From positions 5,608-29,607 of the forward strand of contig DHLF01000001.1 of the NCBI GenBank assembly GCA_002405165.1: a stretch of DNA of 24,000 nt, given 5' to 3'. Each line of letters starts with the position of its first letter. The stretch's first letter is position 1. The notes under the pieces are model-generated. The model made no database searches, had not been told where the DNA came from, and saw nothing but the letters and a program-made list of their open reading frames with translations. This DNA comes from Christensenella sp. UBA4675 (GTDB lineage Bacteria > Bacillota > Clostridia > Christensenellales > Borkfalkiaceae). Of the stretch, positions 250-23,393 are shown one piece after another. The position numbers were made by a program, and so were the translations under genes.

Positions 250-521
250 CAATCTAAATAAAGACTATGACGAAGACGGCTGAAAAAAGTTATTTTCACA
301 GAGAGTCGGTAAAAGGTGAAAGCCGATAAATTGTTTTTTCTCAAAAGCCCATCGCTTCCGAGTCGGAAATCCGAAATTTTTAAAGTAGGCGTTTCCCGTT
401 ATACTGCGTAAACGTGTAGGAATTGTTTGATTCCGTGAGAGGCAACTTTTAGTTGCAATTTGAGTGGTACCGCGAGTAAATTATTACCCGTCTCAAAGAA
501 ATTTGAGGCGGCTATTTTTTT
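250..521 (+). promoter_or_regulatory. T-box riboswitch leader 1 (putative specifier AUC = Ile)
   Basis: GA/K-turn base (GACUAUGACGAAG ... CUUCCGAGUC). AGAGAG box 300-305. Distal-loop GGTGAAA 315-321. Canonical T-box sequence AATTTGAGTGGTACCGCG 457-474 with UGGU bulge 465-468. Intrinsic terminator 488-521 (CCGTCTCAAA/TTTGAGGCGG plus T7), whose 5' arm CTCAAA can instead pair with TTTGAG of the T-box to form the antiterminator. Confidence 0.9.
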
Positions 522-634: not shown

Positions 635-2902
635 ATGGCAGAAGTAGATTCCGAAAAGTTATTGGAAATTGGCACGAGAATTAAAGAAATGCGTGAAATT
701 TTTAACTTATCGCAACAAGACATGGCGACCAAGTGCGAAGTTTCGCTAGAAGATTATTGCGCTTATGAAAACGGAAAAAAAGATTTACCTTTTACGTTTA
801 TTCATAAATGCGCCTTAGCTTTCGGAATAGGCATTACTGACTTATTAGAAGGTAGAAGCGCGCACCTTTCGTCTTATACCGTTACGAGAAAAGGGCAAGG
901 GCAAGAAACCGCAAAAGAAAACGGAATAGAAATTCAAAACCTTGCTCCGCTTTTCCGTAAAAAACTTGCTGAACCTTATTGGGTAAGATACGAATACAGT
1001 GAAAGTTTACAAAATAAACCTATTCATTTAACCAAGCACTCGGGACAAGAATTCGACCTGGTTTTAAAGGGTAGGTTAAAAGTTCAAGTCGGCGATAACG
1101 TCGAATACTTAGACGAAGGCGACAGCATTTATTATAACAGTTCCACACCGCACGGAATGATAGCGGTAGACGGTGAAGAATGTTTATTCGTTGCTGTAGT
1201 GTTGCCAGGTGAAAACGTAGAAGAAAACGTTTTAAGGGAAACGCTTATATCCGCAAGGGGAACGGACGAAAAATTCGTATGTTCTAAATTTATAAACGCA
1301 ACAGAAGACGAAAAGGGCGTTTTAAAAGCGATTGATTTTAACAACGAAGACAAATTTAACTTTGCTTTCGATATTTTAGACGAAATAGCTAAAAAAGAAC
1401 CTGACAAAAGGGCAATGGTTTACGTCGATAAAGACAAAAACGAAAAGTTCTTTACTTTTTCGGATATGAAAAAAGAATCGGCTCGTTCGGCTAACTATTT
1501 TAAATCCTTAGGAATTAAAAAGGGTGACAGGGTAATGTTGGTTCTTAAAAGACATTATCAATTTTGGTTTGCTATTATGGGACTTTGTAAATTAGGCGCG
1601 ATAGCAATTCCCGCAACTAATCAGCTTTTATCCCATGATTTCGAATATAGATTTAACGCCGCAGGCATAAAAGCGATAGTTGCAACCGCCGACGGGGACG
1701 TAGCTCATCAAGTTGATTTAGCGGAAAAAAATTCTCCCACGTTAGAGCTTAAAATACTCGTAAACGGAACGAGAGAAGGTTGGAGAGATTTTAACAGCGA
1801 ATACACTATGTATTCCACTCATTTTTATAGAACGGAGGACACTCCTTGCGGAGATGACTCTATGCTTATGTTCTTTACCAGCGGAACTACGGGATATCCG
1901 AAAATTGCGTGCCATTCGTTTAAATATCCGTTAGGACATTATATAACGGCAAAATATTGGCACGGAGTTTCTCCCGACGGATTGCATTTCACTATTTCCG
2001 ATACGGGTTGGGGAAAAGCTTTGTGGGGAAAATTATACGGACAATGGCTTTGCGAAGGAGCGGTATTCGTTTACGATTTCGACAGATTTTCGGCTTCCGA
2101 CATACTTCCTATGTTTAAAAAGTATAACATTACTACTTTCTGCGCTCCGCCCACTATGCTTCGTATGATGATAAAAGAAGATATTTCGAAATACGACCTT
2201 TCGTCTATTAAACATATGACGACTGCGGGAGAAGCGTTAAACCCCGAAGTTTATCGTCAGTTCGAAAAGGCTACGGGACTTCAAATAATGGAAGGATTCG
2301 GGCAAACGGAAACTACGCTTTCGGTTGCAAACTTAATCGGAAATCCGCATAAAGTAGGTTCTATGGGTAAACCTGTACCGCTTTACGATATGGATATAGT
2401 AGACGAAAACGGAAATAGCGTAGCTGTCGGCGAAACGGGAGAAATCGTAATAAAAACTTCCGATAAAATTCCTTGCGGATTATTTAAAGGATACTATCGT
2501 AACGACGAAAAGACCAAAGAAGTTTGGCACGACGGATATTATCACACGGGCGATACTGCTTGGCGCGACGAAGACGGATTTTTTTGGTACGTCGGCAGAG
2601 TTGACGACGTAATCAAATCTTCGGGATACAGAATAGGGCCGTTTGAAATTGAAAGCGTTATAATGGAACTTCCGTACGTTTTGGAATGCGGAGTAAGCGC
2701 ATATCCCGACGAAGTAAGGGGACAAGTAGTTAAAGCTAGCATTGTTTTGGTAAAAGGTAAAGAAGGAACGGAGGGACTTAAAAAAGAAATTCAAGATTAC
2801 GTTAAAAAACACACCGCTCCTTACAAGTATCCCAGAATCGTAGAATTTAAAACTGAACTTCCTAAAACGATAAGCGGAAAAATTCAAAGAAACAAGTTAT
2901 AA
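635..2902 (+). CDS. HTH(XRE)-cupin-acyl-CoA synthetase fusion, paralog 1 (AMP-forming short/medium-chain fatty acid-CoA ligase)
   Basis: ATG 635 preceded by AGGAG 623-627. N-terminus is an XRE-type HTH (NLSQQDMATKCEVSLEDYCAYENGKK). A cupin barrel follows (HSGQEFDLVLKGRLKV...GDSIYYNSSTPHGMIA). From FNFAFDILD onward it is an adenylate-forming ligase with FTSGTTGYPK, YHTGD, GRVDDVIKSSGYRIGPFEIE and PKTISGKIQR motifs. Confidence 0.93.
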   Translation: MAEVDSEKLLEIGTRIKEMREIFNLSQQDMATKCEVSLEDYCAYENGKKDLPFTFIHKCALAFGIGITDLLEGRSAHLSSYTVTRKGQGQETAKENGIEIQNLAPLFRKKLAEPYWVRYEYSESLQNKPIHLTKHSGQEFDLVLKGRLKVQVGDNVEYLDEGDSIYYNSSTPHGMIAVDGEECLFVAVVLPGENVEENVLRETLISARGTDEKFVCSKFINATEDEKGVLKAIDFNNEDKFNFAFDILDEIAKKEPDKRAMVYVDKDKNEKFFTFSDMKKESARSANYFKSLGIKKGDRVMLVLKRHYQFWFAIMGLCKLGAIAIPATNQLLSHDFEYRFNAAGIKAIVATADGDVAHQVDLAEKNSPTLELKILVNGTREGWRDFNSEYTMYSTHFYRTEDTPCGDDSMLMFFTSGTTGYPKIACHSFKYPLGHYITAKYWHGVSPDGLHFTISDTGWGKALWGKLYGQWLCEGAVFVYDFDRFSASDILPMFKKYNITTFCAPPTMLRMMIKEDISKYDLSSIKHMTTAGEALNPEVYRQFEKATGLQIMEGFGQTETTLSVANLIGNPHKVGSMGKPVPLYDMDIVDENGNSVAVGETGEIVIKTSDKIPCGLFKGYYRNDEKTKEVWHDGYYHTGDTAWRDEDGFFWYVGRVDDVIKSSGYRIGPFEIESVIMELPYVLECGVSAYPDEVRGQVVKASIVLVKGKEGTEGLKKEIQDYVKKHTAPYKYPRIVEFKTELPKTISGKIQRNKL

Positions 2903-2918
2903 AAACAATTAAATATAG

Positions 2919-2947
2919 TTGACAAATTTTTTTCGTGATGATATAAT
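2919..2947 (+). promoter_or_regulatory. sigma-A type promoter P2 for T-box leader 2
   Basis: TTGACA 2919-2924, 17-nt spacer, TATAAT 2942-2947 with a TGn extended -10 (TGA 2939-2941). Lies 17 nt after the stop of paralog 1 with no terminator in between. Confidence 0.75.
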
Positions 2948-2952
2948 AGCGA

Positions 2953-3226
2953 GCAATAAAGACGATGACGAAGAGAACTTATAAACGATACTTTCCAGAG
3001 AAAAAGCGTCAGGTGAGAGCTTTAAGTTAGTTTATAAACGTTTGTAGCTTCCGAGTCGGGAGAAAGAAAGAAGAAATTCCGTAGAATCTCCCCGAAAAGC
3101 GTTGCGTTAAAACGTAGGAATTGATTGATTCCGTAAGTGGCAGTTAAACACTGCAATTTGAGTGGTACCGCGGGTAAAAATGCTCGTCTCAAAGTATCTG
3201 ACTTTGGGGCGAGCTTGTTTTTTTCT
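2953..3226 (+). promoter_or_regulatory. T-box riboswitch leader 2 (putative specifier GUA = Val)
   Basis: Same architecture as leader 1. GACGAUGACGAAG ... CUUCCGAGUC base. AGAGAA 2997-3002. GGTGAGA 3012-3018. T-box AATTTGAGTGGTACCGCG 3155-3172 with UGGU 3163-3166. Terminator 3182-3224 (GCTCGTCTCAAAGT/ACTTTGGGGCGAGC plus T-run). Confidence 0.9.
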
Positions 3227-3250
3227 CTCCCCTAAAAAACGGAGGACGAT

Positions 3251-5545
3251 ATGGAACAGATGACAGGACTTGATTTAAAAATCAAGGAAGTTGCAGGCAG
3301 AATTAAAGAACTTCGCGAAATAGAAGGTCTTTCGCAACAAGATATGGCTTTAAAAACGGACGTATCGCTAGACGAATATCAAAAATGCGAACAAGGCGAA
3401 AGTAACTTAACGTTTGCTTTTATTTACCGTTGTTCTTTAGCTTTAAAGGTAAACGTAACCGATATTATAGAAGGTTATAGTCCCGAATTAAAAGCTTTTA
3501 CGGTAACAAGAAACGGTGCGGGACAAATAGTCAGCAAAGCGCACGGAATGACTTATTACAATATGGCGTACGCATTCCGCAACCGTATTGCAGAGCCGTT
3601 ATTCGTAAAAGCCGTATATAACGACGAAGCGCAGTATAAAGATATAGAACTTACCACTCACGACGGACAAGAATTAGATATAGTTATAAACGGATATTTA
3701 ATGGTTCAAGTCGGAAGTCATAAAGAAGTATTAGGTCCGGGTGATACTATTTATTACGATAGTTCCACTCCGCACGGAATGATAGCCGTAAACGGAAAAG
3801 ATTGCGATTTCTATGCGGTAGTATTAAATCCGTCGGGAGAGCCTATTCCCGAACTTGCAAGTTCTTCTTCGAAAGAAATTAAAGACAAGAAAACGGGATT
3901 TAAGGACGAAAAAGACAGAATTTACAAAAAGTATATCGACGTAGTAGAAAACGAAAACGGTACGCCCGTTTCGATTAAATTTAAAAATACCGAAAAGTTT
4001 AATTTTGCATTCGATTTAGTAGACGCGCTTGCCGAAAGGGAACCCGAAAAACTAGCAATGTTACACGTTTCCAACAATATGACCGAAAGAAGATTTACTT
4101 TTTCGGATATGAAAAAGGAATCTGCCCGTACGGCAAACTACTTTAAATCTTTGGGAATTAAAAAAGGCGACAGAGTAATGCTTGTACTTAAAAGGCATTA
4201 TCAGTTTTGGTTTGCAATGCTTGGCTTAAATAAATTAGGCGCAATTGCAATTCCCGCAGTATATCAATTACAAGAACACGATTTTGAATATCGTTTTAAG
4301 TCTGCGGGCGTAAAAGCTATAGTATGTACGGGGGACGGAGATACCGCTCATCAAATAGATATAGCGTGTCAGAATTGTCCCGACCTTACTATTAAAATAA
4401 TGGTAAACGGAACGAGAGATGGTTGGAGAAATTTCGACGAAGAATACAAAATGTATTCCACTCATTTCGATAGAACCGAAGATACCGCTTGCGGAAACGA
4501 TACTATGCTTATGTATTTCACTAGCGGAACTAGCGGTTATCCTAAAATTGCTGTTCACAACCACAAATACCCGTTAGGGCATTTCCATACGGCAAAATAT
4601 TGGCACGCCGTTGACCCCGAAGGATTACATTTTACTATTTCCGATACGGGCTGGGCAAAAGCAATGTGGGGGAAACTATACGGACAATGGCTAGCGGAAG
4701 CTGCTACTTTCGTTTACGATTTCGATAGGTTCGATGCCGAAAAAATTATGCCTATGTTTGCAAAATATCATATCACTACTTTTTGCGCTCCTCCTACGAT
4801 GCTTCGTATGATGATTAAACAAGATTTATCCAAATACGATTTTTCTTCCGTAAAGCACATGACGACTGCGGGCGAAGCATTAAATCCCGAAGTTTATCGT
4901 CAATTCGAAAAGCTTACGGGGTTACAGATACACGAAGGTTTCGGTCAATCGGAAAGTACTATGATAATAGGAAATATGATTGGCGCCCCGCATAAAATAG
5001 GTTCAATGGGTAAACCTGCGCCTATATACGATATAGACTTATTCGACCACGACGGAAAGAGTGTTCCCGTAGGCGAAACGGGAGAAATAGTAGTAAACGT
5101 TAAAAACGGAGTTCCTTGCGGATTGTTTACGGGGTACTATAAAGACGAAGCAAAAACCAAAGAAGTTTGGCACGACGGTTACTACCACACGGGTGATACC
5201 GCTTGGCGCGACGAAGACGGTTATTATTGGTACGTAGGAAGAGTAGACGACGTTATTAAATCTTCGGGATATAGAATAGGACCGTTCGAAATAGAAAGCG
5301 TTATAATGGAACTTCCGTACGTTTTGGAATGCGGAGTAAGCGCTTGTCCCGACGAAGTTAGGGGACAAATAGTAAAAGCAAGCGTAGTTCTCGTTAAAGG
5401 CGTTGAAGGTACTGAAGAATTAAAAAAAGAAATTCAAAATTACGTTAAAGAAAAAACCGCTCCTTATAAGTATCCCAGAATAGTAGTATTTAAGGACGAG
5501 TTACCTAAAACCGTTAGCGGAAAAATAATGAGGAATAAGCTTTAA
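3251..5545 (+). CDS. HTH(XRE)-cupin-acyl-CoA synthetase fusion, paralog 2
   Basis: ATG 3251 after GGAGG 3241-3245. Same three-module layout: HTH GLSQQDMALKTDVSLDEYQKCEQGES, cupin HDGQELDIVINGYLMV...GDTIYYDSSTPHGMIA, ligase motifs FTSGTSGYPK, YHTGD, GRVDDVIKSSGYRIGPFEIE, PKTVSGKIMR. The ligase part is highly similar to paralog 1. The HTH-cupin part is much more diverged. Confidence 0.93.
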   Translation: MEQMTGLDLKIKEVAGRIKELREIEGLSQQDMALKTDVSLDEYQKCEQGESNLTFAFIYRCSLALKVNVTDIIEGYSPELKAFTVTRNGAGQIVSKAHGMTYYNMAYAFRNRIAEPLFVKAVYNDEAQYKDIELTTHDGQELDIVINGYLMVQVGSHKEVLGPGDTIYYDSSTPHGMIAVNGKDCDFYAVVLNPSGEPIPELASSSSKEIKDKKTGFKDEKDRIYKKYIDVVENENGTPVSIKFKNTEKFNFAFDLVDALAEREPEKLAMLHVSNNMTERRFTFSDMKKESARTANYFKSLGIKKGDRVMLVLKRHYQFWFAMLGLNKLGAIAIPAVYQLQEHDFEYRFKSAGVKAIVCTGDGDTAHQIDIACQNCPDLTIKIMVNGTRDGWRNFDEEYKMYSTHFDRTEDTACGNDTMLMYFTSGTSGYPKIAVHNHKYPLGHFHTAKYWHAVDPEGLHFTISDTGWAKAMWGKLYGQWLAEAATFVYDFDRFDAEKIMPMFAKYHITTFCAPPTMLRMMIKQDLSKYDFSSVKHMTTAGEALNPEVYRQFEKLTGLQIHEGFGQSESTMIIGNMIGAPHKIGSMGKPAPIYDIDLFDHDGKSVPVGETGEIVVNVKNGVPCGLFTGYYKDEAKTKEVWHDGYYHTGDTAWRDEDGYYWYVGRVDDVIKSSGYRIGPFEIESVIMELPYVLECGVSACPDEVRGQIVKASVVLVKGVEGTEELKKEIQNYVKEKTAPYKYPRIVVFKDELPKTVSGKIMRNKL

Positions 5546-6207
5546 TGAATTATAAAAGAATAACTTTACTGTGCGGTCATTACGGTAGCGGTAAAACCAA
5601 CGTAGCCGTAAATATGGCGTTCGATTTAAAAGGCAGTCACGATAAAGTCGCAGTTGCGGATTTAGATATAGTAAATCCATACTTTCGTAGTAAAGACAGT
5701 AGCGAAGATTTTAAAAAAAGAGATATAAGGCTAATCGTTTCGGATTACGCCAACACTAATTTGGATATACCCGCGCTTCCGCAAGATATGTACGCGATAA
5801 CGGACGATAAAAGTCTTAAATGTGTTTTAGATATAGGCGGGGACGATAGAGGAGCTTTGGCACTTGGCAGACTTGCCCCTAAAATCGTAGAAGAAAACGA
5901 TTACGAAATGTTTATGGTAATAAACAAGTTTAGACCATTAACGCCCGACGCTTTATCCACGCTAGAAGTTATGAGAGAAATAGAATACGCAGGCGGAATA
6001 AGATTTACGGGTTTAATAAACAATTCTAATTTAGGGAACGAAACCACTGGCGAAGAGGTAATAAAAAGTATGGAATACGCTAGGGAATTAGAAAGAATAA
6101 GCGGAGTAAAATTAAAGCTTACAACTTGTAAAGCCGACCTATACGACGATTTAAAGGATAAAATAGAAAATTTATTTCCTTTAAATTTACAAAAGAAAAT
6201 AAATTAA
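5545..6207 (+). CDS. P-loop NTPase (SIMIBI-type, MinD/CooC-like), function unknown
   Basis: ATG overlaps the upstream stop (TAATG 5543-5547). Walker A is GHYGSGKT near the N-terminus and Walker B-like is VLDIGGDD. 220 aa, with no membrane segments apparent. Confidence 0.75.
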   Translation: MNYKRITLLCGHYGSGKTNVAVNMAFDLKGSHDKVAVADLDIVNPYFRSKDSSEDFKKRDIRLIVSDYANTNLDIPALPQDMYAITDDKSLKCVLDIGGDDRGALALGRLAPKIVEENDYEMFMVINKFRPLTPDALSTLEVMREIEYAGGIRFTGLINNSNLGNETTGEEVIKSMEYARELERISGVKLKLTTCKADLYDDLKDKIENLFPLNLQKKIN

Positions 6208-6242: not shown

Positions 6243-6449
6243 ATGGCAAAATTAACGTTTAAAACCGATAACTGTAAAGGTTGCGGTTTGTGTGTGGACG
6301 TTTGTCCGAAAGGCGTTTTAGCTTTATCTAACGATAAGATAAACAAAAAAGGACATCATCCCGTAGAAGCAGTTAATCCCGACAAATGTATAGCTTGCGC
6401 ATTTTGCGCTATTATGTGTCCCGATTGTATAATTAAAGTTGAAAGGTGA
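6243..6449 (+). CDS. 2-oxoacid:ferredoxin oxidoreductase delta subunit (2x[4Fe-4S] ferredoxin-like)
   Basis: Two CxxCxxCxxxCP motifs (CKGCGLCVDVCP, CIACAFCAIMCP). I prefer ATG 6243 (AAGGAG 6228-6233, 9-nt spacing) over the TTG 6213 used by the ORF track. TGA stop 6447-6449. Confidence 0.88.
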   Translation: MAKLTFKTDNCKGCGLCVDVCPKGVLALSNDKINKKGHHPVEAVNPDKCIACAFCAIMCPDCIIKVER

Positions 6450-6453
6450 TATT

Positions 6454-7512
6454 ATGGCAGAAAAAGTATTGATGAAAGGAAACGAAGCTATTGCCGAAGC
6501 CGCTATTAAAGCGGGGTGCAGACACTATTTCGGCTATCCTATTACGCCACAAACGGAAATTGCCGCGTATATGGCTAAAAAAATGCCAAAGATAGGCGGA
6601 ACGTTTTTACAGGCTGAAAGTGAAATTGCCGCAATCAACATGGTATACGGCGTTGCAAGTGCAGGAAAGAGAGGTATGACTTCTTCTTCAAGCCCGGGAA
6701 TTTCTCTTAAAGGAGAAGGTCTTTCTTATATGGCAGGTGCGGATTTACCTTGTTTAGTTGTAAACGTACAAAGGGGCGGTCCGGGACTTGGCGGAATTCA
6801 ACCCAGTCAGTCTGACTATTTTCAGGCAACGCGCGGTGGCGGACACGGCGATTATCATATGATAGTTTTAGCTCCTGCGTCCGTTCAAGAAATGGCGGAT
6901 TTAACCATAAAAGCGTTTGATTTAGCGGATAAATATCGTATGACCGCTATGATTCTCGCGGACGGTACTATGGGACAAATGATGGAACCCGTTTCGCTCG
7001 ATTTCGACGTTGCTCCCGCTCCCGAAAAGCCTTGGGCTACTACGGGAACTCAAATGAAAAGGGCGCATAACATAATAAATTCGTTATCGCTTGTTCCCGA
7101 AGAGTTAGAACAACTTAATATCGCAAGGTATAAAAAGTACAAGCAAATAGAAGAAAACGAAACTATGTATGAAGAATACTTAATGGACGACGCGGAAATT
7201 GCTATTTGCGCGTTCGGAATTGCCGCAAGGGTATCTAAAAACGCGATAGACGAAGCAAGGAAAAAGGGAATAAAAGTAGGTATGATAAGACCTATAACGC
7301 TTTGGCCGTTCCCGCAAGCTCCGTTTAAAAAGGCGTTAAAAACCGTTAAGCATTTTATCAGCGTAGAACTTTCTATGGGACAAATGATAGAAGACGTAAA
7401 ACTCGCAACGGAATGTAAAGTTCCCGTAACGCTTTGCAACAGAGTAGGCGGAATGATAACTACTCCCGAACAAGTTTTACAAGCAATAGAAAAGGCTTAT
7501 AAGGAGGTATAA
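6454..7512 (+). CDS. 2-oxoacid:ferredoxin oxidoreductase alpha subunit
   Basis: N-terminus MAEKVLMKGNEAIAEAAIKAGCRHYFGYPITPQTEI is the typical OFOR alpha signature. ATG 6454 with GAAAGG 6441-6446 is preferred over TTG 6439, which would overlap the delta gene. Confidence 0.9.
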   Translation: MAEKVLMKGNEAIAEAAIKAGCRHYFGYPITPQTEIAAYMAKKMPKIGGTFLQAESEIAAINMVYGVASAGKRGMTSSSSPGISLKGEGLSYMAGADLPCLVVNVQRGGPGLGGIQPSQSDYFQATRGGGHGDYHMIVLAPASVQEMADLTIKAFDLADKYRMTAMILADGTMGQMMEPVSLDFDVAPAPEKPWATTGTQMKRAHNIINSLSLVPEELEQLNIARYKKYKQIEENETMYEEYLMDDAEIAICAFGIAARVSKNAIDEARKKGIKVGMIRPITLWPFPQAPFKKALKTVKHFISVELSMGQMIEDVKLATECKVPVTLCNRVGGMITTPEQVLQAIEKAYKEV

Positions 7513-7513: not shown

Positions 7514-8269
7514 ATGGTAGTAAAAGAAAAACCGCACGCTTTATGCGACGTTCCGTTGCATTATTGTCCCGGTTGCACGCACGGGATAATTCATAGATTA
7601 GTAGCGGAAGTAATAGACGAACTCGGAATAGAAGGGAAAACCGTAGGAATTGCCCCCGTAGGTTGTTCGGTTATGGCGTATAACTATTTTAATTGCGATA
7701 TGATAGAGGCGGCTCACGGAAGAGCTCCCGCAGTAGCGACGGGCGTAAAAAGAGCTGACCCCGACAATTTGGTAGTATTTACTTATCAAGGGGACGGAGA
7801 TTTAGCTTCTATCGGTATGGCTGAAACCGTACATGCGGCTACTAGAAACGAAAACATAACCGTAATATTTATAAACAACGCAATTTACGGAATGACGGGC
7901 GGACAAATGGCTCCCACGTCGCTTCCCGGACAAGTAACGCAAACTTCTCCTTACGGAAGAGATGTAAAATTATGCGGATATCCTATCAGAGTTTGCGAAA
8001 TGCTTTCCGAACTAGAAGGACCCGAATATTTGGCAAGAGTTACCGTTGACAACGTTAAACACGTCAACGAAGCTAAAAAAGCTATAAAGAAAGCGTTTAT
8101 GAACCAAATAGAAGGCAAAGGATTTTCTTTGGTAGAAGTTATTTCTTCTTGTCCTACTAACTGGGGTATGACGCCACAAAACGCTCTTAAATGGATAGAA
8201 GAAAAAATGATTCCTTATTATCCTTTGGGGGTATATAAAGACAGAAGCGCGGAAAAGGAGGCAAAATAA
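7514..8269 (+). CDS. 2-oxoacid:ferredoxin oxidoreductase beta subunit (TPP / Fe-S binding)
   Basis: AAGGAGG 7501-7507 precedes the start. Cys cluster HYCPGCTHG...GCS. TPP motif YQGDGDLASIGMAE...NNAIYGMTGGQ. The start is 1 nt after the alpha stop. Confidence 0.9.
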   Translation: MVVKEKPHALCDVPLHYCPGCTHGIIHRLVAEVIDELGIEGKTVGIAPVGCSVMAYNYFNCDMIEAAHGRAPAVATGVKRADPDNLVVFTYQGDGDLASIGMAETVHAATRNENITVIFINNAIYGMTGGQMAPTSLPGQVTQTSPYGRDVKLCGYPIRVCEMLSELEGPEYLARVTVDNVKHVNEAKKAIKKAFMNQIEGKGFSLVEVISSCPTNWGMTPQNALKWIEEKMIPYYPLGVYKDRSAEKEAK

Positions 8270-8802
8270 TGGCTACTACTCAATTTTTGTTTTCGGGTTT
8301 TGGCGGACAAGGTATTTTGTTTTCAGGTAAGTTTTTAGCTTATAAAGGACTTATGGAAAACAAAAACGTAAGTTGGCTTCCTTCTTACGGACCTGAAATG
8401 AGAGGCGGTACTGCTTCTTGTTCGGTTATCGTAAGCGACAGTTTAGTAGGCTCGCCTATCGTATCTAACCCCGACGTACTTATTGCAATGAATCTTCCTT
8501 CGCTCGATAAATTCGAAAAAAGCGTAAAAAGTGGCGGAATGATTTTTCTAGATTCCACTTTAATCGAAAGAAAAGTCGTTAGGGACGACGTAAAGGTGTT
8601 TTATATTCCCGCAACGGCGCTTGCCAGTGAAAACAATATGTCTACGCTTGCAAATATGATTATAATGGGAAAAGTTTTGAAAGAGCTTAACGAATTTACG
8701 GACGAATCTGTCGGCGACGCGTTAAAAAAGGTAATATCCGCAAAACACGCCGATATGATGGAAATCAACCGTAAGGCTTTGGAAATCGGAGCTAATTTAT
8801 AA
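8269..8802 (+). CDS. 2-oxoacid:ferredoxin oxidoreductase gamma subunit
   Basis: FSGFGGQGILFSGKFLA N-terminal signature of OFOR gamma subunits. The start overlaps the beta stop (TAATG 8267-8271). Confidence 0.88.
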   Translation: MATTQFLFSGFGGQGILFSGKFLAYKGLMENKNVSWLPSYGPEMRGGTASCSVIVSDSLVGSPIVSNPDVLIAMNLPSLDKFEKSVKSGGMIFLDSTLIERKVVRDDVKVFYIPATALASENNMSTLANMIIMGKVLKELNEFTDESVGDALKKVISAKHADMMEINRKALEIGANL

Positions 8803-8937: not shown

Positions 8938-10002
8938 ATGGAAATTAAATTTGAAAAAACGGCTTGTCCTAAACAAAAGCCCGACCCTGCTACTTTGGGT
9001 TTTGGAAAAATATTTACCGACCATATGTTTATAATGGACTATACGCCCGATAAAGGTTGGCACGACGCAAGAATCGTTCCTTTCGGAAATATTAGTCTTC
9101 ATCCTGCGTCCACCGTTTTACATTACGGTTCTGAAATTTTCGAAGGCTTAAAGGCTTATCGTAAAAAAGACGGTACGGTTCAAATGTTCAGACCTATCGA
9201 AAACGTAAGAAGAATGAATAATTCGGCTGAAAGACTATGTTTACCCCAAATTCCCGAAGATTTAGCTATGGAAGTATTAACTAAATTCGTTGAAACCGAA
9301 AAAGATTGGACTCCCGATGCAAAGGGAACGTCTTTATATATAAGACCTTTTATGTTTGGTAACGACGAAACTTTGGGCGTACACTCTGTTAAACACGCAA
9401 CCTTTATGATAATAACTTCGCCCGTAGGCAGTTATTATAAAGAAGGTATTAACCCCGTTAAAATTATGATAGAAGATAAAGACGTAAGAGCTGTTCGTGG
9501 CGGTACGGGATATGCTAAATGCGGTGGTAACTATGCGGCTAGTAACAGAGCGGGCGAAAAAGCGGAAGAAAAAGGATATTCGCAAGTTTTATGGCTTGAC
9601 GGCGTTGAAAGAAAGTATATAGAAGAAGTCGGCGCGATGAACGTTATGTTTAAAATAAACGGAGAAATCATAACGCCTATGCTTTCTGGTTCTATTCTTC
9701 CCGGAATTACGAGAAAATCTTGCATAGAAGTATTAAAGGACGAAGGATATAAAGTAACCGAAAGACTTTTATCCGTAGACGAACTCGAAAAAGCTATTGA
9801 AGACGGAACGCTCGAAGAAGCTTGGGGATGCGGAACCGCCGCGGTAGTTTCTCCTATCGGAGAGCTTTGTTATAAAGGTAAAAAGTGCATAATCAACAAC
9901 GGAAAAATCGGAGAAGTTACTCAACATTTATATGATACTTTAACGGGTATTCAGTGGGGAGAAAAAGAGGATAAATTCGGTTGGACTTATCCTTTAAAAT
10001 AA
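8938..10002 (+). CDS. ilvE: branched-chain amino acid aminotransferase (fold-type IV PLP enzyme)
   Basis: AAAGGAG 8925-8931 then ATG 8938. Long-form BCAT features: FTDHMF, HYGSEIFEGLKAY, LYIRPFMFG, GGTGYAKCGGNYAAS, GITR, GTAAVVSP. There is no intrinsic terminator in the 135-nt spacer upstream. Confidence 0.92.
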   Translation: MEIKFEKTACPKQKPDPATLGFGKIFTDHMFIMDYTPDKGWHDARIVPFGNISLHPASTVLHYGSEIFEGLKAYRKKDGTVQMFRPIENVRRMNNSAERLCLPQIPEDLAMEVLTKFVETEKDWTPDAKGTSLYIRPFMFGNDETLGVHSVKHATFMIITSPVGSYYKEGINPVKIMIEDKDVRAVRGGTGYAKCGGNYAASNRAGEKAEEKGYSQVLWLDGVERKYIEEVGAMNVMFKINGEIITPMLSGSILPGITRKSCIEVLKDEGYKVTERLLSVDELEKAIEDGTLEEAWGCGTAAVVSPIGELCYKGKKCIINNGKIGEVTQHLYDTLTGIQWGEKEDKFGWTYPLK

Positions 10003-10030
10003 TAGATTTAATACAGATTCAGATAGTTAA

Positions 10031-10061
10031 AAAGAGCTTGGCAATTTGCCAAACTCTTTTT
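10031..10061 (+). terminator. intrinsic terminator ending the acs-OFOR-ilvE block
   Basis: Hairpin AAAGAGCTTGGC / GCCAAACTCTTT (one mismatch, 5-nt loop) running into a T tract, about 30 nt after the ilvE stop. Confidence 0.7.
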
Positions 10062-10136
10062 AGCGGTTTATGTGAAAAATTTTATAGTACTAAATTTTAG
10101 CATTATAACGCTTTTTTTACGCGTATTGGGAGAAGA

Positions 10137-12199
10137 ATGCAAAAGGAAAAAATAATAGGCTTTGCAAAAAAACCGTTCCGTTTTCTTTAATTTTATTATT
10201 TTCGATTTTGGGAACGTACATAGTGTTTTTAAAAGGTCTATTTAAAGGCGACGATTATTATTTTCACGCCACGGATATCTACGAATGGTATAATGCAATT
10301 TTAAATGGAAAAAAAGTTTCACCTATAAGTGAAAATTTAGCAATGGGGCTAGGTGTAGGAAATAGATTGTTTTATTCTCCTTTATCGCATTTAACCGTCG
10401 TTCTAGTAGGTTTATTTTTAAAAATTTTTAATATTTCCTTAATTGCTTCATTTAAAATCGTAATAATTTTAATGATATTTATTTCGGGGGTATTTACGTA
10501 CTTTTTTGCTTTGCGTTTTACGTCTAATAATAAAAATGCGTCTTTGTTTACTGTGCTTTGTTTTGTAATATTTCCGTATAGAGCTTTTAATATTTTTAGA
10601 AGATTTGCCTTTGCCGAAGCCTTTGCTATGACGTTTTTGCCTTTATTTTTTATGGGATTATATGATATTTTACATTTTAAGGAAAAGGTAAACGTAACGG
10701 CTTTTTTAGAAGTTGTTTTGGGCGGAGTATTTCTCGTCTTATCTCATAATATAACCGCTTTATACGCGTTTATTTTCGGAGTTATATATATTCTAATAAA
10801 TATAAACGAGTTGATTAAATCTCTTAAATTTAAATATTACGTTCTTTTATGCGTTGTTTCGATAATACTAATAATAGGAATATCTTCTATTGCGCTTTTC
10901 ACTCAATTTGAGCTTTTAAAAGACAAATTATATATTGTAAGCAATAAAGATGCAATGGGTACAAGCATTTCTTCTGTTACTTCTCAACATGCGTTTTGGA
11001 AAATTTTTTCACATTCGGGATTTGGTTTTGGCAGTATTAAAAATTTTGCAAGATTTATATGGTTTATAATTTCTTGTGTAATCACAATTTTAACCGATAC
11101 TTATATTAGGAAAATTGAAAAATTAAAAACTGCGTATAGATATTTGATTTTGTTTTTAATTCTATTCGTATTTAATATTTTTTTTATAAATTCAGCTACT
11201 ATTTTAGCCGTAATTGTTTTTTATTTTTTATACGTGTACGTCGATTATTCAATAAAAAAGGGAAAACAAAAAGAGATTTACGTTGAAAAAAGCATTTTAA
11301 AAGATAAATTATTTTGGTTTTCGATTTCCGCAATTCTAATTTGTTTAGTTTTTATGATATTTGGATTTGTTTGGGAAATATTACCGAGTTTTATGTTAAA
11401 TATACAATTCCCTTGGAGATTGTGGTCGTTTATACAGCTGTTTTTGTCGATAATTGTGGGACTTATTTGTTATTATTTTAATAAAAAACAAATACTTTTT
11501 ACATTTCTTTCAATATTTTTTGCAACTTGTATAATTTGCAACTTGTATAATTTGCAACAAAGGGATAATTGCAAAAGAAGAACAATTTAAAAATAGAGAT
11601 GAGTATTCCTATTACAGTACTTTTGGTTGGTCTTATACGTTAAATTACGACTTATATAAAGCAAAATATTCGTTAGGTTTTAAAAACGACTACATACCGC
11701 AAATATTTTTATTAGAAGATTATATACCTAAATATTCAACTTCTTTGTATAATGATATTAAAAAGTCAATATTTTTAGATGAAGAAGATATGTTTATTGC
11801 GGGCGAAAAATATTCTTTTAATCCCGTAGTTTTAACGGGAAGCGGAACGATAAAATATTAAAAAGAAAAACGCCTTATTATTTAATAAAAGTAAAAACAA
11901 CGCAAGAAACAAAAATACAAATGCCGTTGTTTTATTATTTGGGGTATAGCATAAACTTAAAAACGAACGAAATTAAAACAGTTTCAGCGGAAAAGGTAGA
12001 CGGACTGATTTCTTTCGATATTTTAGCAGGAAATTACGAAATTACGATAAATTATAAAGGAACGACTTTAAGAAAAACTTCTATAATATTAAACGTTACT
12101 TGTTCAAGCGTTGTAGTCGGATATATAATTTTTAACTTCGTATCTAAAAAAATAAAAAGAAAAAGTGTTTTAAATAATAAAGTTGCAACTTCCGCATAA
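10137..12199 (+). pseudogene. large polytopic membrane protein (GT-C / YfhO-like glycosyltransferase-type, tentative), reading frame broken at three or more sites
   Basis: The ATG 10137 frame (MQKEKIIGFAKK) stops after an A7 run (10166-10172). One extra A would join it to the 460-aa ORF frame (TVPFSLILLFSILGTYIVFLKG...DDYYFH). That ORF ends at 11590 just after a 16-bp tandem duplication. Removing one copy opens a stop-free frame 11553-11858 (KGIIAKEEQFKNRDEYSYYSTFGWSYTLNY...FNPVVLTGSGTIKY). A further 1-nt shift near A4 11852-11855 joins it to the 11921-12199 ORF (..YYLIKVKTTQETKIQMPLFYYLGYS..., C-terminal TM). There are many hydrophobic segments throughout. Confidence 0.7.
11519..11558 (+). 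repeat. 16-bp direct tandem duplication (about 2.5 copies of TGCAACTTGTATAATT) inside the membrane-protein gene
   Basis: 11521-11536 and 11537-11552 are identical, followed by the partial copy TGCAAC. 16 is not a multiple of 3, so the duplication shifts the frame. Confidence 0.95.
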
Positions 12200-12222
12200 C
12201 TGTTTAAATAAAATTTAACCAT

Positions 12223-12254
12223 AAAAAAATCGCCAATTTTTCGGCGATTTTTTG
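12223..12254. terminator. bidirectional intrinsic terminator between convergent genes
   Basis: Core stem ATCGCC / GGCGAT with an 8-nt loop, extended by flanking A-run/T-run pairing. It looks like a terminator on both strands. Confidence 0.7.
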
Positions 12255-12273
12255 CATAAAATCAAACATAAAA

Positions 12274-13539
12274 TTATTTGCTATTTTTTTTAGTTCTTCC
12301 TATTTCCGTATTGTCTTTTTTTCTAGATTGCAGTGTTTCTATCGGATTTTTTTTCGTTTCAAATCGGTAGTCCTGACCAAATTCTTTTATATGGTTTTCT
12401 ATTACCTTATGGCTCGGAAGCGTTTTTCCGTTTTTAACTACGTGTTTATTGTATTTAAAGAAATCGTCTTTTGGACTTAAAGTTTCAATCGATTGATATT
12501 GTTCTCTAACTTTCGTATAATTTACGGTTTTTGCTAAAACTTCTCTTATATAGTCGATATTTCCTTCGAAATGTAAAGTTTCGGGGAAATCGCCGCCGCA
12601 AGGATATAACGCTTGCCAAGGCTTGCCTTCGTATTTTTCAAGCAGTCCCGCAACAAATTGTAAATGCCCGCATTCTTCTAAATAATGGCGATAAAAAATT
12701 TCTCTTATATATTTATCGGTTTCATCTGCGTAGCAGGAATAATATAAATAACATTCGGTATATTCGTGCATAAGCCAGCTTTCCAATTTAGAGCACGTCG
12801 TATCGATTAAACTGCCGTATTCCGTTACGTGCTGTTCTTCTATCATGGCTATTTCGCTATAAAGTTTTCTTCCCGTCTCACTTGGGTGAAAACCAGCAAT
12901 ATTCATATAGTAATTCATAGTTTGTTGTTCTCCAGCCGTTATAATATTTACTACAAGTTTGGTAAACGGGTCGGAAATTTCCGCCGAAATATGGCGGTTT
13001 ATCGCGTCGTACGGGTGTCTTGGTTCGCTTATAGTCGGTCTTCCGGGGGTAATTTCGGTGTAACCGCCGGTAAGTGTGTTTGCGTCTATTCCTTGTTCGC
13101 TTTCTAAAAGATTTGCAAACCTATATAGATGGTCAAAATCTTCTAGCAATGCAAAATCAAGAGCTTGTTTTACGTAAGAATCTTTAACGTGTTTAGCAAG
13201 TATCGCGGTTAAATCGACAGCTAATTGTTCGTAGCCGATGGTCGTTTCAAGGTCTGTTTCGTCGATAGGTTTTAAACCTGAAATAATTTTTTGCTGTTGT
13301 TGTTCGTGTCTACGAATTAAAGAAATATCGCGTCTTAATTCGTTGTCGTTGCAAGTTCTTGAAAACTGGTGTAAAAACCAGTTTTGTTCGAATTCTGCGC
13401 CGTTTAACAAAATTATTCTTGTTTTTGTGTACGGCAAAGTTGTTTTTTTGTCGTAGGGAACGGGGCTGTAATCGTCAACCGTTGCAAAATCCTTTACGGA
13501 TATTGCGTTTTTTTCTAAAAATGGATTTACTTTATTCAT
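12274..13539 (-). CDS. ferritin-like (di-iron carboxylate four-helix-bundle) superfamily protein, function unknown
   Basis: I prefer the start at 13539 (MNKVNPFLEK; AGGAG on the minus strand at 13549-13553) over the longer ORF-track start. There are two ExxH motifs (AMIEEQHVTEY, YLEECGHLQF), each preceded by a helix carrying a conserved Glu (AGEQQTMNYY, LMHEYTECYLYY). This is the ligand pattern of di-iron ferritin-like proteins. Confidence 0.6.
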   Translation of the reverse strand: MNKVNPFLEKNAISVKDFATVDDYSPVPYDKKTTLPYTKTRIILLNGAEFEQNWFLHQFSRTCNDNELRRDISLIRRHEQQQQKIISGLKPIDETDLETTIGYEQLAVDLTAILAKHVKDSYVKQALDFALLEDFDHLYRFANLLESEQGIDANTLTGGYTEITPGRPTISEPRHPYDAINRHISAEISDPFTKLVVNIITAGEQQTMNYYMNIAGFHPSETGRKLYSEIAMIEEQHVTEYGSLIDTTCSKLESWLMHEYTECYLYYSCYADETDKYIREIFYRHYLEECGHLQFVAGLLEKYEGKPWQALYPCGGDFPETLHFEGNIDYIREVLAKTVNYTKVREQYQSIETLSPKDDFFKYNKHVVKNGKTLPSHKVIENHIKEFGQDYRFETKKNPIETLQSRKKDNTEIGRTKKNSK

Positions 13540-13626
13540 AAAAAAATTCTCCTTTCTTAAATAATTTCCAAGTTTAAAAATTTTAATCAAAAAATAAGAA
13601 AAAAATGGTAAATTTTTAAAAAAATA

Positions 13627-15950: not shown

Positions 15951-18680
15951 ATGAAACCGGACGAAAATCAATTAAAAATAATTCAAGATACTAAAAACAA
16001 TATAATTCTTTACGCGGGAGCAGGAACGGGTAAAACTTTTACCGTAGCAAATAAAATTGCGTATTACTTACAAAATCAAATACTTAGCGCAGATAAAATT
16101 TTATGCTTAACCTTTACTGTAAAAGCCTGCAACGAGCTAATTGACGAAATAAATAATATAAGCGGTCGTCAAGACGTATTAGTAAAAACAATTCACGGTT
16201 TTTGCTATAAAATTTTAAAAGAAAAAAGTTTATCGCTAGAAGGCGTTTATAACACTCCCGATATTTGCGACGAAGTAGATTCCGAAATTATTTTACGGGA
16301 AAAATGTTTACCTTATTTAAACGAAATTGCTTTTTCAGACCATTTAAAGTCAAGGGGTGCAAAACACGATTTGCAATGGCTAAAAACTCAGGATATAGCT
16401 TACCTTAACGATAAAATGTATTTTGCCGTTAAAGATAATCAAGGATATTTTTTAATTTCTTACGACGGTAAAACTTTAAGGACTGACGAAAGTTTTAAAA
16501 ACGAAAAAAGCGGAATGATTTGTCCGCAATGTAAGGCAAGGCAAAAAAAGCAGTGTAATTTTTGCGAAGTTTGTTCTTACGATTTAAGGTTTTATATTCC
16601 GCCTTTTACTACGCATGTTAATTCACTAAGAAGTTTTGTTTCTTTTATAAAAAGATATAGAGCAATTTTAAATTATTATTCCGGAAATGATGAGATAGAT
16701 TACCAAAGAGTTTTCGATTATTTTTACAATAACGAAAGAGAAAAAATAGAAAGACTTTTATTGTATAAAGAAAAAGATTTTAATAAAAACGTAATTGATT
16801 TTTATTTTTTGTCCGCAATGCAAAAATATTGCGGAAAGTTTATAACATACTACAACGAATATTTAACGCAAAGAAATCAACTAGACTACGACGATTTAAT
16901 CGTAAAAACTTACGAGTTGTTTAGTGTGTCCGATTATAAAGATTTGCCCGAATATTCGTTAATCGTAATCGACGAAATGCAAGACACAAGCGAATTGGAA
17001 TATTCGCTTATCAGTAAATTATTTTCCGGGCAAGTTATGTTGTGCGGGGACGTAAATCAATCCATATACGGTTGGCGCGGAGCAAAGCCGATTGAAATAT
17101 TAAATAATTTTAAAGATAATTTTAACGCAACCGAATATCACTTAAATAAAAATTACAGGTCGAATAAAGCCCTGCTCGATTTTGGTGAGAAGTTTTTAAA
17201 AAACGCTTTTTCAAATAAAGACGAAACTTTATCAGTATCTTTAACAGAAGGCGAAAAGCCGATAATTAGAAAATGCGAAAATTTATCCGATGAAGCTAAA
17301 TTTATTTGCGATAAATGCGTATCTTTAAAGGGCAGTAAAGCGATACTAACGCGAACCAACTATTACGGAAAACGTTTGTACGAACGCCTTTGCGAGTTAG
17401 ACGGTAATTTAGTATTTACGTCAATAGAAGAAGAACAAAATTTACTAAAAAGCAAAATAGTAAAAGAATTTGTAAGTTTTTTAAAAATTATCTATAATCC
17501 CGACGATAAATTTAACGTAGATAAACTTTTTATAGATTTAATTCCTAACGTCGGAGAAGTTGCGATTGATAAAATAAATTTACCGCTTTTAGCTGTTGAT
17601 AGTTCCATATTTTTAAATAGTTTTATTTATGACGGGGAAGATCCGTATTCGGATTTAATTAAAGCTTTTGAAAATAAAAAAGTTGTCGTTTTCGATATAG
17701 AAAGCAGTGGGTTAGACGTAGACGAAAACGAAATAGTTCAATTATCCGCAAAGAAAACCGACGGTCAAACTTTTAATAGATTTATAAAAAATAAAAAACC
17801 TTTGGACGAGCAGTCTGTTAAAGTACACGGTTTTACGCAAGAATTTTTAAACGCAAACGGAGAAGATTTACTTACCGTTTTAAAAGATTTTTCCGTATTT
17901 ATTAAAGATTGCGTTATCGTGGGGCATAATTCGTCAAACTTCGATTTACCGGTTCTAAAAAGAGTATATAAAGAAAACGGTTTAGAATTTAATTATTTAT
18001 CGCATTATGATACTTTAAAACTTGCAAAAAAAATAATAAAAGACGTAAAGAACTATAAATTAGCTACTTTATGCGAAAGGCTTTCTATTTTAAACCTTAA
18101 AGCTCACGATGCGTTTTTTGACGTGGAAGCAACTTTAAAATTATTAGAATACATAGTTAAAATATTAAAACAAACTTCTTTTTTACGTATCGTAATTATA
18201 AATAAAAATAAAGATAAATTCTACAATTTTGCAAAGTTTTATAATAAATTGAAAAATATGGAAACCGCTAAATTCGTTTCTACGCTTACCGATTACTTAG
18301 TTGAATCTAGTTCGGTAGACGCCGTTGTTAAAAACGTAAATTTAAATAGATTAAAGCGATTTACAAAAAAATTTAATTTATCTTTGCCGTTATTAACCGC
18401 TATAAAAGAGTTTTTAGACGATAAAGACGATTATTTCGACGTTTCTAGGACGATTCCTATTTTAACTGTGCATCAGGCAAAAGGAATGGAGTTTGATAAC
18501 GTTTTCGTTGCGGGTGTAGACAACTATACTTTCCCCGACGAAGTTGAAAAATACGGCGAACAAAGAAAGGTTTTTTACGTTGCGATAAGTAGGGCAAAAT
18601 CCAAATTATTTCTTACTTTTTGCGCTAAAAACGCTTTTGGCGGGCAAAATCAGCCGTCTAATCTTTTAAAGTTATTATAG
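15951..18680 (+). CDS. UvrD/Rep/PcrA-family SF1 helicase with inserted zinc ribbon and DEDDh (DnaQ-like) 3'-5' exonuclease domain
   Basis: Helicase motifs: AGAGTGKTF (I), LCLTFTVKA (Ia), VIDEMQDTS (II), CGDVNQSIYGWRGA (III), NYRSNK (IV), TVHQAKGMEFDNVFV (V) and FYVAISRAKSKL (VI). A CPQC...CNFCEVC Zn ribbon lies between Ia and II. Between motifs IV and V there is VVFDIESSGLD (ExoI), GHNSSNFDLPVL (ExoII) and AHDAFFDVEAT (ExoIII, HxAxxD). The start is 2 nt after the HAD stop. Confidence 0.88.
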   Translation: MKPDENQLKIIQDTKNNIILYAGAGTGKTFTVANKIAYYLQNQILSADKILCLTFTVKACNELIDEINNISGRQDVLVKTIHGFCYKILKEKSLSLEGVYNTPDICDEVDSEIILREKCLPYLNEIAFSDHLKSRGAKHDLQWLKTQDIAYLNDKMYFAVKDNQGYFLISYDGKTLRTDESFKNEKSGMICPQCKARQKKQCNFCEVCSYDLRFYIPPFTTHVNSLRSFVSFIKRYRAILNYYSGNDEIDYQRVFDYFYNNEREKIERLLLYKEKDFNKNVIDFYFLSAMQKYCGKFITYYNEYLTQRNQLDYDDLIVKTYELFSVSDYKDLPEYSLIVIDEMQDTSELEYSLISKLFSGQVMLCGDVNQSIYGWRGAKPIEILNNFKDNFNATEYHLNKNYRSNKALLDFGEKFLKNAFSNKDETLSVSLTEGEKPIIRKCENLSDEAKFICDKCVSLKGSKAILTRTNYYGKRLYERLCELDGNLVFTSIEEEQNLLKSKIVKEFVSFLKIIYNPDDKFNVDKLFIDLIPNVGEVAIDKINLPLLAVDSSIFLNSFIYDGEDPYSDLIKAFENKKVVVFDIESSGLDVDENEIVQLSAKKTDGQTFNRFIKNKKPLDEQSVKVHGFTQEFLNANGEDLLTVLKDFSVFIKDCVIVGHNSSNFDLPVLKRVYKENGLEFNYLSHYDTLKLAKKIIKDVKNYKLATLCERLSILNLKAHDAFFDVEATLKLLEYIVKILKQTSFLRIVIINKNKDKFYNFAKFYNKLKNMETAKFVSTLTDYLVESSSVDAVVKNVNLNRLKRFTKKFNLSLPLLTAIKEFLDDKDDYFDVSRTIPILTVHQAKGMEFDNVFVAGVDNYTFPDEVEKYGEQRKVFYVAISRAKSKLFLTFCAKNAFGGQNQPSNLLKLL

Positions 18681-22793: not shown

Positions 22794-22870
22794 CGGGGTG
22801 TAGCGCAGTTTGGTAGCGCACGTGGTTTGGGACCATGGGGTCGGGAGTTCGAGTCTCTTCACCCCGACCA
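22794..22870 (+). tRNA. tRNA-Pro (anticodon UGG)
   Basis: Acceptor CGGGGTG/CACCCCG, anticodon loop TTTGGGA, T-loop TTCGAGT, encoded CCA. The full cloverleaf folds by hand. Confidence 0.92.
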
Positions 22871-22893
22871 AATACATACACCTTTATATATAA

Positions 22894-22970
22894 GGGCCTT
22901 TAGCTCAGTTGGTTAGAGCGGTCGGCTCATAACCGATTGGTCCGCGGTTCGAGTCCGTGAAGGCCCACCA
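22894..22970 (+). tRNA. tRNA with CAU anticodon, probably tRNA-Ile2 (lysidine-modified) rather than elongator Met
   Basis: Acceptor GGGCCTT/AAGGCCC, anticodon loop CTCATAA, encoded CCA. It is not an initiator (no C1 mismatch, no GGG/CCC anticodon stem). The GGCTCATAACC anticodon arm and the C4-G69/C5-G68 pairs resemble Bacillus and E. coli tRNA-Ile2 from memory. Confidence 0.85.
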
Positions 22971-22998
22971 TTAAAAAACTAAATAGATTAAATTTTTT

Positions 22999-23075: not shown

Positions 23076-23105
23076 TTAAAAATTTGGGGAGATGTTAAGT
23101 CATTT

Positions 23106-23181: not shown

Positions 23182-23217
23182 TTTTTTTTGCCAAAAAAAG
23201 CTAGGTGTACTCAATTT

Positions 23218-23293: not shown

Positions 23294-23308
23294 TTTTTAT
23301 TTTAATAC

Positions 23309-23393
<85 letters not shown>

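Follow-up and report, generated by a model that had tools for sequence, protein, structure and literature searches.

In a 24,000-nt window of contig DHLF01000001.1 from Christensenella sp. UBA4675 (assembly GCA_002405165.1, positions 5,608 to 29,607), two tandem genes encode proteins in which a helix-turn-helix (HTH) domain of the XRE type and a cupin barrel are joined in-frame to an acyl-CoA ligase. The genes, ORF1 (635..2902, plus strand, 755 aa) and ORF2 (3251..5545, plus strand, 764 aa; all coordinates are those of the window), each stand behind their own T-box leader, the first with an isoleucine and the second with a valine specifier. The HTH-cupin part (the N-module) also occurs elsewhere as a separate small protein encoded next to a ligase gene. 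The paired Ile and Val T-boxes, together with this split/fused gene-pair relationship, are the strongest new result of our analysis. We propose that the locus serves the tRNA-charge-controlled salvage of exogenous branched short-chain fatty acids (BCFA) to Ile and Val, and that the N-module is a sensor or partner domain which does not bind DNA. We hold this reading with belief and doubt in about equal measure. A first-pass annotation of the locus had suggested a BirA-like DNA-binding regulator, which we consider less likely than a sensor or partner domain without DNA binding.

The first T-box leader (258..498, plus strand) matched Rfam model RF00230 with 102 bits, above the gathering score. 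It carries the specifier AUC (Ile) at 351-353 and a UGGU acceptor-pairing bulge. The second leader (2956..3194, plus strand) is housed in the 348-nt spacer separating ORF1 and ORF2 and carries the specifier GUA (Val) at 3044-3046; its score of 91.7 bits (E = 6e-21) falls 1.3 bits short of the gathering threshold, which Rfam sets at 93. Both leaders show stem I, the specifier, the T-box sequence and a terminator. The intrinsic terminators, at 488..520 for T-box 1 (stem 488-511 and a T-run) and at 3182..3224 for T-box 2 (stem 3182-3214 and a T-run), both on the plus strand, are conserved in orthologs. The first-pass annotation had named a single T-box; one does exist, and there are in fact two.

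Promoters P1 (216..244) and P2 (2919..2947), both on the plus strand, consist of TTGACA, a 17-nt spacer and TATAAT, a 12 of 12 match to the sigma-70 consensus. The -35 region of P1 (TTGACAAA) and its extended -10 are kept across 71 orthologous loci, and P2, which has a TG extension, is kept in 56. No terminator was found between the ORF1 stop and P2 (window 2903-3250), so transcription from P1, once past T-box 1, continues into T-box 2. Four of the type-1 promoters (L056, L059, L075 and L084) contain an inverted copy of the -35 hexamer overlapping the -35 box (TTGTCAA n5-7 TTGACAA), which may reflect chance, a divergent promoter or a lineage-specific site.

The two specifiers are maintained in other genomes. 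Our ortholog set comprised 127 proteins, 73 of type 1 and 54 of type 2; copy 1 was always nearest to ORF1 and copy 2 nearest to ORF2, and both copies were present in 63 loci. Window specifiers were taken from covariance-model alignments and ortholog specifiers from MAFFT-aligned leaders. About 71 of the 73 type-1 leaders read ATC at the specifier position, and about 56 of the 58 type-2 leaders read GTA or GTC there. Distant GC-rich tandem pairs agree with this assignment: copy 1 has AUC and copy 2 GUC in L096, and copy 1 has AUC in L094. Because the specifiers hold across species and distant lineages, the duplication and the Ile/Val division of labour appear to be old. The specifiers make ORF1 the ligase of the Ile pathway and ORF2 that of the Val pathway, and thus imply 2-methylbutyrate (ORF1) and isobutyrate (ORF2) as the probable substrates. 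A search that extended to openly accessible papers, with subscription journals outside it, found no paper on T-box control of VOR-type oxidoreductase or ligase genes, or of the reverse route from BCFA to branched-chain amino acids (BCAA). In the type-1 leader of L047 the aligned specifier position reads CTC (Leu), where the alignment is poor; a variant dedicated to Leu/isovalerate may exist.

Both ligase parts belong to the ANL acyl-CoA synthetases, with Pfam matches to AMP-binding (E = 4e-66) and AMP-binding_C (E = 6e-20). The ANL motifs of ORF1 (TSGTTGYPK, GFGQTE, YHTGD, GRVDDVIKSSG and PKTISGK) have equivalents in ORF2. Motifs A3, A8 and A10 had been described as intact, which is correct, and A5 and A7 are intact as well in both ORFs. 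Apparent departures from the motifs in orthologs came mostly from the strictness of the patterns used, e.g. SGK to NGK. The closest solved relative is MacsMa (PDB 3ETC, E = 1e-187 over ORF1 aa 239-753, the ligase part only). MacsMa aligns over its full length with the ligase part and shares the ANL core motifs, but unlike ORF1 and ORF2 it has no HTH-cupin module. Its alternative acyl-pocket Trp is retained as W442 of ORF1 and is invariant in the 127 orthologs. The preferred substrate of MacsMa, from Methanosarcina acetivorans, is 2-methylbutyrate (PMC10455477). The top NCBIfam model for both ORFs was MbcS (NF047394), at 440 and 443.5 bits, far under the equivalog cut-off of 850, so ORF1 and ORF2 are not MbcS orthologs. 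MbcS of Staphylococcus aureus activates branched short-chain acids (PMC10026030, PMC11167679); its product goes into fatty-acid rather than amino-acid synthesis, and it lacks an N-terminal module. Judged from these matches, the ORF1 and ORF2 ligases are members of the MacS-like branch of the ANL superfamily. Taking homology and T-box specifiers together, we propose that ORF1 is a 2-methylbutyrate-CoA ligase and ORF2 an isobutyrate-CoA ligase. In the ligase, just four positions distinguish the two paralog types while being conserved within each (G460A, L463M, G475A and L562M). The first two fall in the segment DTGWGKALWG, which we take to be the acyl-pocket A4 region of Acs. So small a number of type-specific positions is consistent with a subtle shift in substrate.

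The fused HTH-cupin-ligase architecture is genuine. Pfam placed HTH_19/HTH_3 at aa 13-73 of ORF1 and 17-77 of ORF2, Cupin_2 at 134-188 and 133-190, AMP-binding at 249-621 and 261-630, and AMP-binding_C at 671-749 and 680-758, respectively, and the scores of all four domains in both ORFs were above or near the curated cut-offs. The first-pass annotation had thus rightly recognized an XRE-type HTH at the start of both proteins, followed by a cupin with the signature G-D-x-x-Y...P-H-G (G162-D163...P172-H173-G174 in ORF1). By our boundaries ORF1 consists of the HTH (about aa 6-72), the cupin (about 90-190), a tether (about 191-213) and the MacS-like ligase (about 214-755), and ORF2 has the same architecture. 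The linker of about 45 aa given earlier agrees roughly with the Pfam boundaries but overstates the tether, which is effectively about 20-25 aa because unfused ligases align with ORF1 from residue 214 or so onward and predicted disorder between module and ligase is confined to 193-210.

ORF1 and ORF2 are 67% identical overall. The linker (191-238) is the least similar region, at 29%; the N-module (aa 1-190) reaches 51% and the ligase 77%, so the HTH-cupin halves are far more diverged than the ligase halves, as had been noticed. Within each ortholog group the N-module is nevertheless conserved like the ligase N-domain (mean top-residue frequency 0.74-0.84 and 0.81-0.84, respectively, against 0.54-0.61 in the linker), which indicates selection on it. 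There are 24 positions at which each paralog type is conserved and the two types differ; 20 of these lie in aa 1-191, and two of the type-specific positions, H131E and N168D, adjoin the two cupin motifs. This distribution fits the earlier suggestion of different ligand specificities; as to the operator specificities also suggested, no conserved operator was found in the promoters and leaders of these loci. One distant relative, copy 2 of the tandem pair in L094 (4493-6769, P0160), has lost all five ANL catalytic motifs (A3 LQSYSYGMAKP, A7 FHTGT, A8 ...IECFG, A10 PKDANGV). It keeps the cupin module, and its HTH is undetectable by Pfam. From its sequence P0160 looks like a pseudo-enzyme, perhaps a purely regulatory one.

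The N-module also exists without the ligase. An exhaustive search with the N-module alone as query (E up to 1e-3) gave 2514 cluster representatives. They include full-length fusions (42-51% identity) as well as many small proteins that are complete at 184-195 aa (30-46% identity). All six stand-alone relatives that we examined (P0143, P0155, P0161, P0173, P0253 and P0234; 30-46% identity) are encoded directly 5' of a MacS-like ligase gene, and the ligase downstream, where tested, is 45-54% identical to that of ORF1. The junctions of these split pairs are ATGA stop/start overlaps or gaps of 12-75 nt. Because the stand-alone relatives always lie directly 5' of the ligase gene, the fusion is the joined form of a strictly conserved gene pair. 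The pairing persists in different surroundings. The small-gene/ligase pair of L086 is oriented divergently to P-loop-vorD-vorB, L100 has its small gene in mid-operon (vorD-vorB-vorAC-HTHcupin-ligase), and L088 and L098 have no VOR-type oxidoreductase gene nearby. Strict pairing even in mid-operon classically signals a protein partner, physical or functional, and not an operon regulator. On a Bacteroidota-like contig with a Por_Secre_tail gene, the pair of L098 (2365-8524) sits inside a cluster of argR, argC, a P5CR-like gene and, further on, OTCase; HTH-cupin/ligase pairs are thus not limited to BCFA/VOR contexts.

The fused form is widespread. A scan of species-representative genomes, made with a pattern from a 6-sequence alignment, found a relative in at least 593 genomes. 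No characterised member of the HTH-cupin-ligase fusion was found in the searchable literature, which did not cover subscription journals. The best 80 relatives (66-79% identity) come nearly all from uncultured gut or rumen Clostridia of the Acutalibacteraceae, Oscillospiraceae, Ruminococcaceae and Christensenellaceae. In most of these 80 species loci the order fusion-1, fusion-2, P-loop, vor, ilvE recurs, with ilvE sometimes first. In the distant locus L096 an 827-aa protein (667-3150) consists of AP_endonuc_2 (a xylose-isomerase-like TIM barrel), AMP-binding and AMP-binding_C, and its gene adjoins a LeuA-like gene. Directly before the HTH-cupin ligases, ORFs of some 815-855 aa, only about 25% identical to the ligase part of ORF1, occur in L026, L028, L032, L047, L058, L060, L061, L063, L065, L066, L070, L074, L075, L081, L083 and L084; from size and position we guess that they are the same AP_endonuc_2-ligase fusion. 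L095 encodes a distant fusion protein, P0135, and downstream of its gene has a SAM-I/IV riboswitch (3020-3152; 60.3 bits, which exceeds the gathering score) that is followed by small ORFs with no Pfam match.

In the salvage route that we propose, ORF1 would activate 2-methylbutyrate and ORF2 isobutyrate to the CoA thioesters, a four-subunit VOR-type 2-oxoacid:ferredoxin oxidoreductase (VOR) would carboxylate the acyl-CoA reductively to the 2-oxoacid, and IlvE would transaminate this to give Ile from 2-methylbutyrate and Val from isobutyrate. Uncharged tRNA-Ile or tRNA-Val would switch on each ligase gene via its own T-box. The N-module would control the attached ligase post-translationally, by an allosteric or oligomeric effect such as feedback by Ile/Val or gating by the acid or acyl-CoA, and its HTH fold would be used for structure or interaction and not for binding an operator. 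Feedback control of the ligase would make sense because the enzyme consumes ATP and CoA and is made from a consensus promoter once the T-box opens.

The genes for these steps follow ORF2 on the plus strand. VOR is represented by its delta subunit (6243..6449, 68 aa, 2x[4Fe-4S] ferredoxin-like), a VorB-like alpha subunit (6439..7512; NF005507, 549.6 bits vs. a cut-off of 399), a thiamine pyrophosphate-binding beta subunit (7514..8269) and a gamma subunit (8269..8802), the last two recognized by both Pfam and NCBIfam. All four subunits are thus present, and Pfam finds POR_N, TPP_enzyme_C, POR and Fer4 among them. The branched-chain amino acid aminotransferase IlvE is encoded at 8938..10002 (NF009897, 487 bits vs. 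a cut-off of 307). Between ORF2 and the VOR genes, with its start overlapping the ORF2 stop, lies a gene for a CbiA/MinD-like P-loop protein (5545..6207, 220 aa), which has a weak Pfam match only and no NCBIfam match. The gene is translationally coupled to ORF2. Nearly every fused locus keeps it next to the VOR genes, as does the split locus L086, and its product may help to mature VOR or to deliver Fe-S clusters to it.

We then considered what the N-module itself could do. An AlphaFold2 model of aa 1-205 (pLDDT 92.5, pTM 0.81) has five helices (helix 3 = 38-45) followed by a cupin barrel, and Pfam, this model and the Foldseek match to 1y9q agree on an XRE HTH followed by a cupin. The top Foldseek E-values (3e-14) belonged to HppE, HEPD and MPnS, Fe(II) enzymes of the HppE family, which likewise have an HTH-like helical domain and then a cupin with a His/Glu/His site. 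The corresponding residues H135, E139 and H173 are invariant in the 127 orthologs. The cupin might accordingly be taken for a metal-dependent enzyme whose substrate would be the acid, the acyl-CoA or the 2-oxoacid. We regard this as very improbable. The module model superposes badly on HppE (TM 0.45, rmsd about 12 A, about 20% identity), the proposed pathway requires no extra chemical step, and the cupin pattern H-x-G-x-E...P-H occurs also in the repressor PuuR. The chemistry of HppE, HEPD and MPnS is unrelated and they carry no fused ligase. They are a precedent for an HTH-like domain with a cupin that does not bind DNA.

The same pocket bears on a second alternative, in which the N-module is purely structural, a dimerisation or scaffold domain that senses no ligand and either keeps the paralogs apart as homodimers or docks the ligase to VOR for channelling of acyl-CoA. 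Dimerisation is common among cupin domains, and XRE-cupin proteins are dimeric when they bind DNA; the type-specific conserved surface positions are concentrated in the N-module, the near-invariant helices 4-5 are consistent with an interface, and the module is linked to VOR genes in the fused and in some split loci. However, the invariant triad argues for a bound ligand or metal, and the split pairs of L088 and L098 lack a VOR nearby. A module with no sensing function is therefore improbable in our judgment, if less so than an enzymatic cupin. The simplest reading of the sequence comparisons is that the N-module is a paralog-specific ligand-binding and/or homodimerising module which may act on its own ligase.

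The most serious alternative is that suggested by the first-pass annotation, a trigger enzyme or one-component regulator in which the HTH dimer would bind an operator, and BCFA, acyl-AMP or BCAA would be sensed by the cupin, by the ligase active site or by both. Its targets would be its own operon or distant ones, such as the de novo ilv genes or transporters, and it would add a substrate-sensing layer atop the T-box. We consider this unlikely, for the HTH does not have the features of an operator reader. Its net charge averages -5.9 in the 127 orthologs (range -9 to -3) and again -5.9 in 67 members of the subfamily, including stand-alone ones (range -11 to +2), so that fused and split members alike are acidic, at about -6. 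Over the same aligned columns the controls, which are validated HTHs, are positive (PuuR +1, SutR +5, 434 repressor +4 and 9k3w +1). Residues 38, 39, 40 and 43 of ORF1 align with Gln28, Gln29, Ser30 and Gln33 of 434 repressor, which we take to be its base-contacting residues. These four, at exposed places on helix 3, vary more than any others in the domain, and acidic (Glu, Asp) or hydrophobic residues prevail at them; over 38-40 and 42-43 the entropy is 1.9-3.4 bits, with Glu, Asp, Ala, Val or Leu predominating. Helices 4-5 (D-F-P-F-T-F-I-H-K-C-A), by contrast, hardly vary. The opposite pattern of conservation would be expected of a protein that reads a conserved operator, and helices 2-3 show no conserved, polar or basic DNA-reading surface.

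The DNA side gave a similar result. No conserved palindrome was found in the 71 type-1 and 56 type-2 aligned promoter regions or leaders, a search limited to the module's own loci. The only conserved elements of the aligned promoter regions are an A-tract, the -35 region and the extended -10, and nothing is conserved between terminator and ribosome-binding site in the ortholog leaders. A palindrome downstream of terminator 1, TTTACGcttttCGTAAA (517-533), was considered as an operator and rejected, as it is conserved in no ortholog. An excess of inverted repeats in the type-1 promoters (5.94 vs. 5.26 +/- 0.13) was rejected as an operator signal too; it is produced by T-run/A-run pairs at the UP-like A-tract, and there was no informative enrichment of palindromes. 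A trigger enzyme is further disfavoured by its stoichiometry, since every copy of an abundant enzyme, expressed from a consensus promoter, carries one copy of the module, and by the small-protein form, which is found mid-operon and always attached to a ligase gene. Because neither the operator nor the DNA-reading surface expected of a regulator was found, we do not class the N-module as one, and the acidic HTH, its unconserved reading positions and the constant place of the stand-alone relatives beside ligase genes make DNA binding less likely.

Several points weigh against the sensor or partner domain and the salvage scheme around it. The HTH passes the Pfam thresholds, and the module model superposes best on 1y9q, a putative XRE-cupin regulator (Foldseek TMq 0.66 / TMt 0.75), both of which also speak for a trigger enzyme. 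The XRE-cupin proteins studied so far are local DNA-binding repressors, encoded beside their targets and with palindromes next to their own genes (PMC7901475), so that the prior favours a regulator. An acyl-CoA ligase moonlighting as a transcription factor has been reported in FadD1 of P. aeruginosa, where a different motif is involved (PMC12754631). A variable recognition helix could also reflect co-evolving operators, and the arguments from charge and variability are indirect, with four control proteins for the former. No T-box was detected in the split loci L085-L088 and L091, which leaves room for the small protein as a transcriptional regulator there. In L086, where the pair is divergent from the P-loop and vor genes, a 6-nt inverted repeat lies between them; this weak repeat, present in L086/L087, is the only one found, and the sample of split loci is too small to judge operators.

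Other points concern the salvage scheme and the control of the ligase. VOR and IlvE, which are needed by both pathways, appear to depend on the Val T-box alone, and if T-box 2 terminates, Ile limitation alone would not induce them. In the full-length AlphaFold2 model (pTM 0.56, shallow alignment) the module is not placed on the ligase with confidence, which speaks neither for nor against docking. The substrate assignments are drawn from the T-box specifiers and homology, and support for any member of the fusion family is computational.

Some known systems resemble the locus in part. BirA, NadR, PutA and BzdR carry an N-terminal DNA-binding domain on an enzyme or enzyme-like domain and couple metabolite status to transcription, and BzdR couples an XRE-type HTH to acyl-CoA sensing. 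These four are demonstrated DNA binders with defined operators. BirA joins a winged HTH to a class II biotin-protein-ligase fold like that of aminoacyl-tRNA synthetases and dimerises on its operator in response to the adenylate, whereas an XRE HTH, a cupin and an ANL ligase are joined here, and the resemblance is conceptual only. The XRE-cupin factors (PuuR, SutR, PsdR, PauR and ErfA; 1y9q) have the same domain order and cupin motif, and their genes lie beside those of metabolic enzymes. Unlike them, the N-module has an acidic HTH with unconserved reading positions, has no operator that we could find and is tied to one enzyme family. The leaders share the canonical stem I, specifier, T-box sequence and terminator with known T-boxes of BCAA genes, and also the Ile and Val specifiers. 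In contrast to those, two stand in tandem in one cluster, each before a substrate-specific ligase paralog of the proposed BCFA-to-BCAA route, an arrangement of which no description was found in the openly accessible literature.

Branched short-chain fatty acids, which also serve as feed additives, are required by many fibre-degrading Clostridia of rumen and gut, and the genes and control logic for converting these acids to Ile and Val are poorly defined. The locus offers a concrete and widespread gene set of two substrate-dedicated ligases, VOR, IlvE and a P-loop factor, in which the Ile/Val T-boxes effectively label the product of each paralog and the partner module is conserved in at least 593 species genomes. 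We raise more tentatively, with doubt somewhat exceeding belief, the possibility that the HTH-cupin is a novel kind of sensor attached to an enzyme, a transcription-factor fold exapted to read Ile/Val or the substrate acid and to switch its own MacS-type ligase allosterically; in a stronger variant it would still bind DNA and cross-regulate the de novo ilv genes, as a true trigger enzyme of the ANL family. If an enzyme-attached sensor is correct, BCFA-to-BCAA salvage in gut and rumen Clostridia would be under two controls, tRNA charging and metabolite level. If the module is a sensor that does not bind DNA, many "XRE family transcriptional regulators" annotated beside ligase genes would be misannotated, and the recruitment of a transcription-factor fold as a regulatory domain of an enzyme would be documented.

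Other features lie further along the window. GC content falls to 25-29% at 10000-12300, compared with 36-43% in the operon, and two ORFs of this low-GC stretch, at 10208-11590 (plus strand, 460 aa) and 12274-13590 (minus strand, 438 aa), have no Pfam match. A UvrD/Rep-type helicase of 909 aa (15951-18680) has an RNase_T/DEDDh exonuclease inserted at aa 579-732, between its N- and C-terminal helicase domains. Six tRNA genes (Pro-TGG, Met-CAT, Asp-GTC, Phe-GAA, Thr-TGT and Tyr-GTA) are clustered at 22794-23393.

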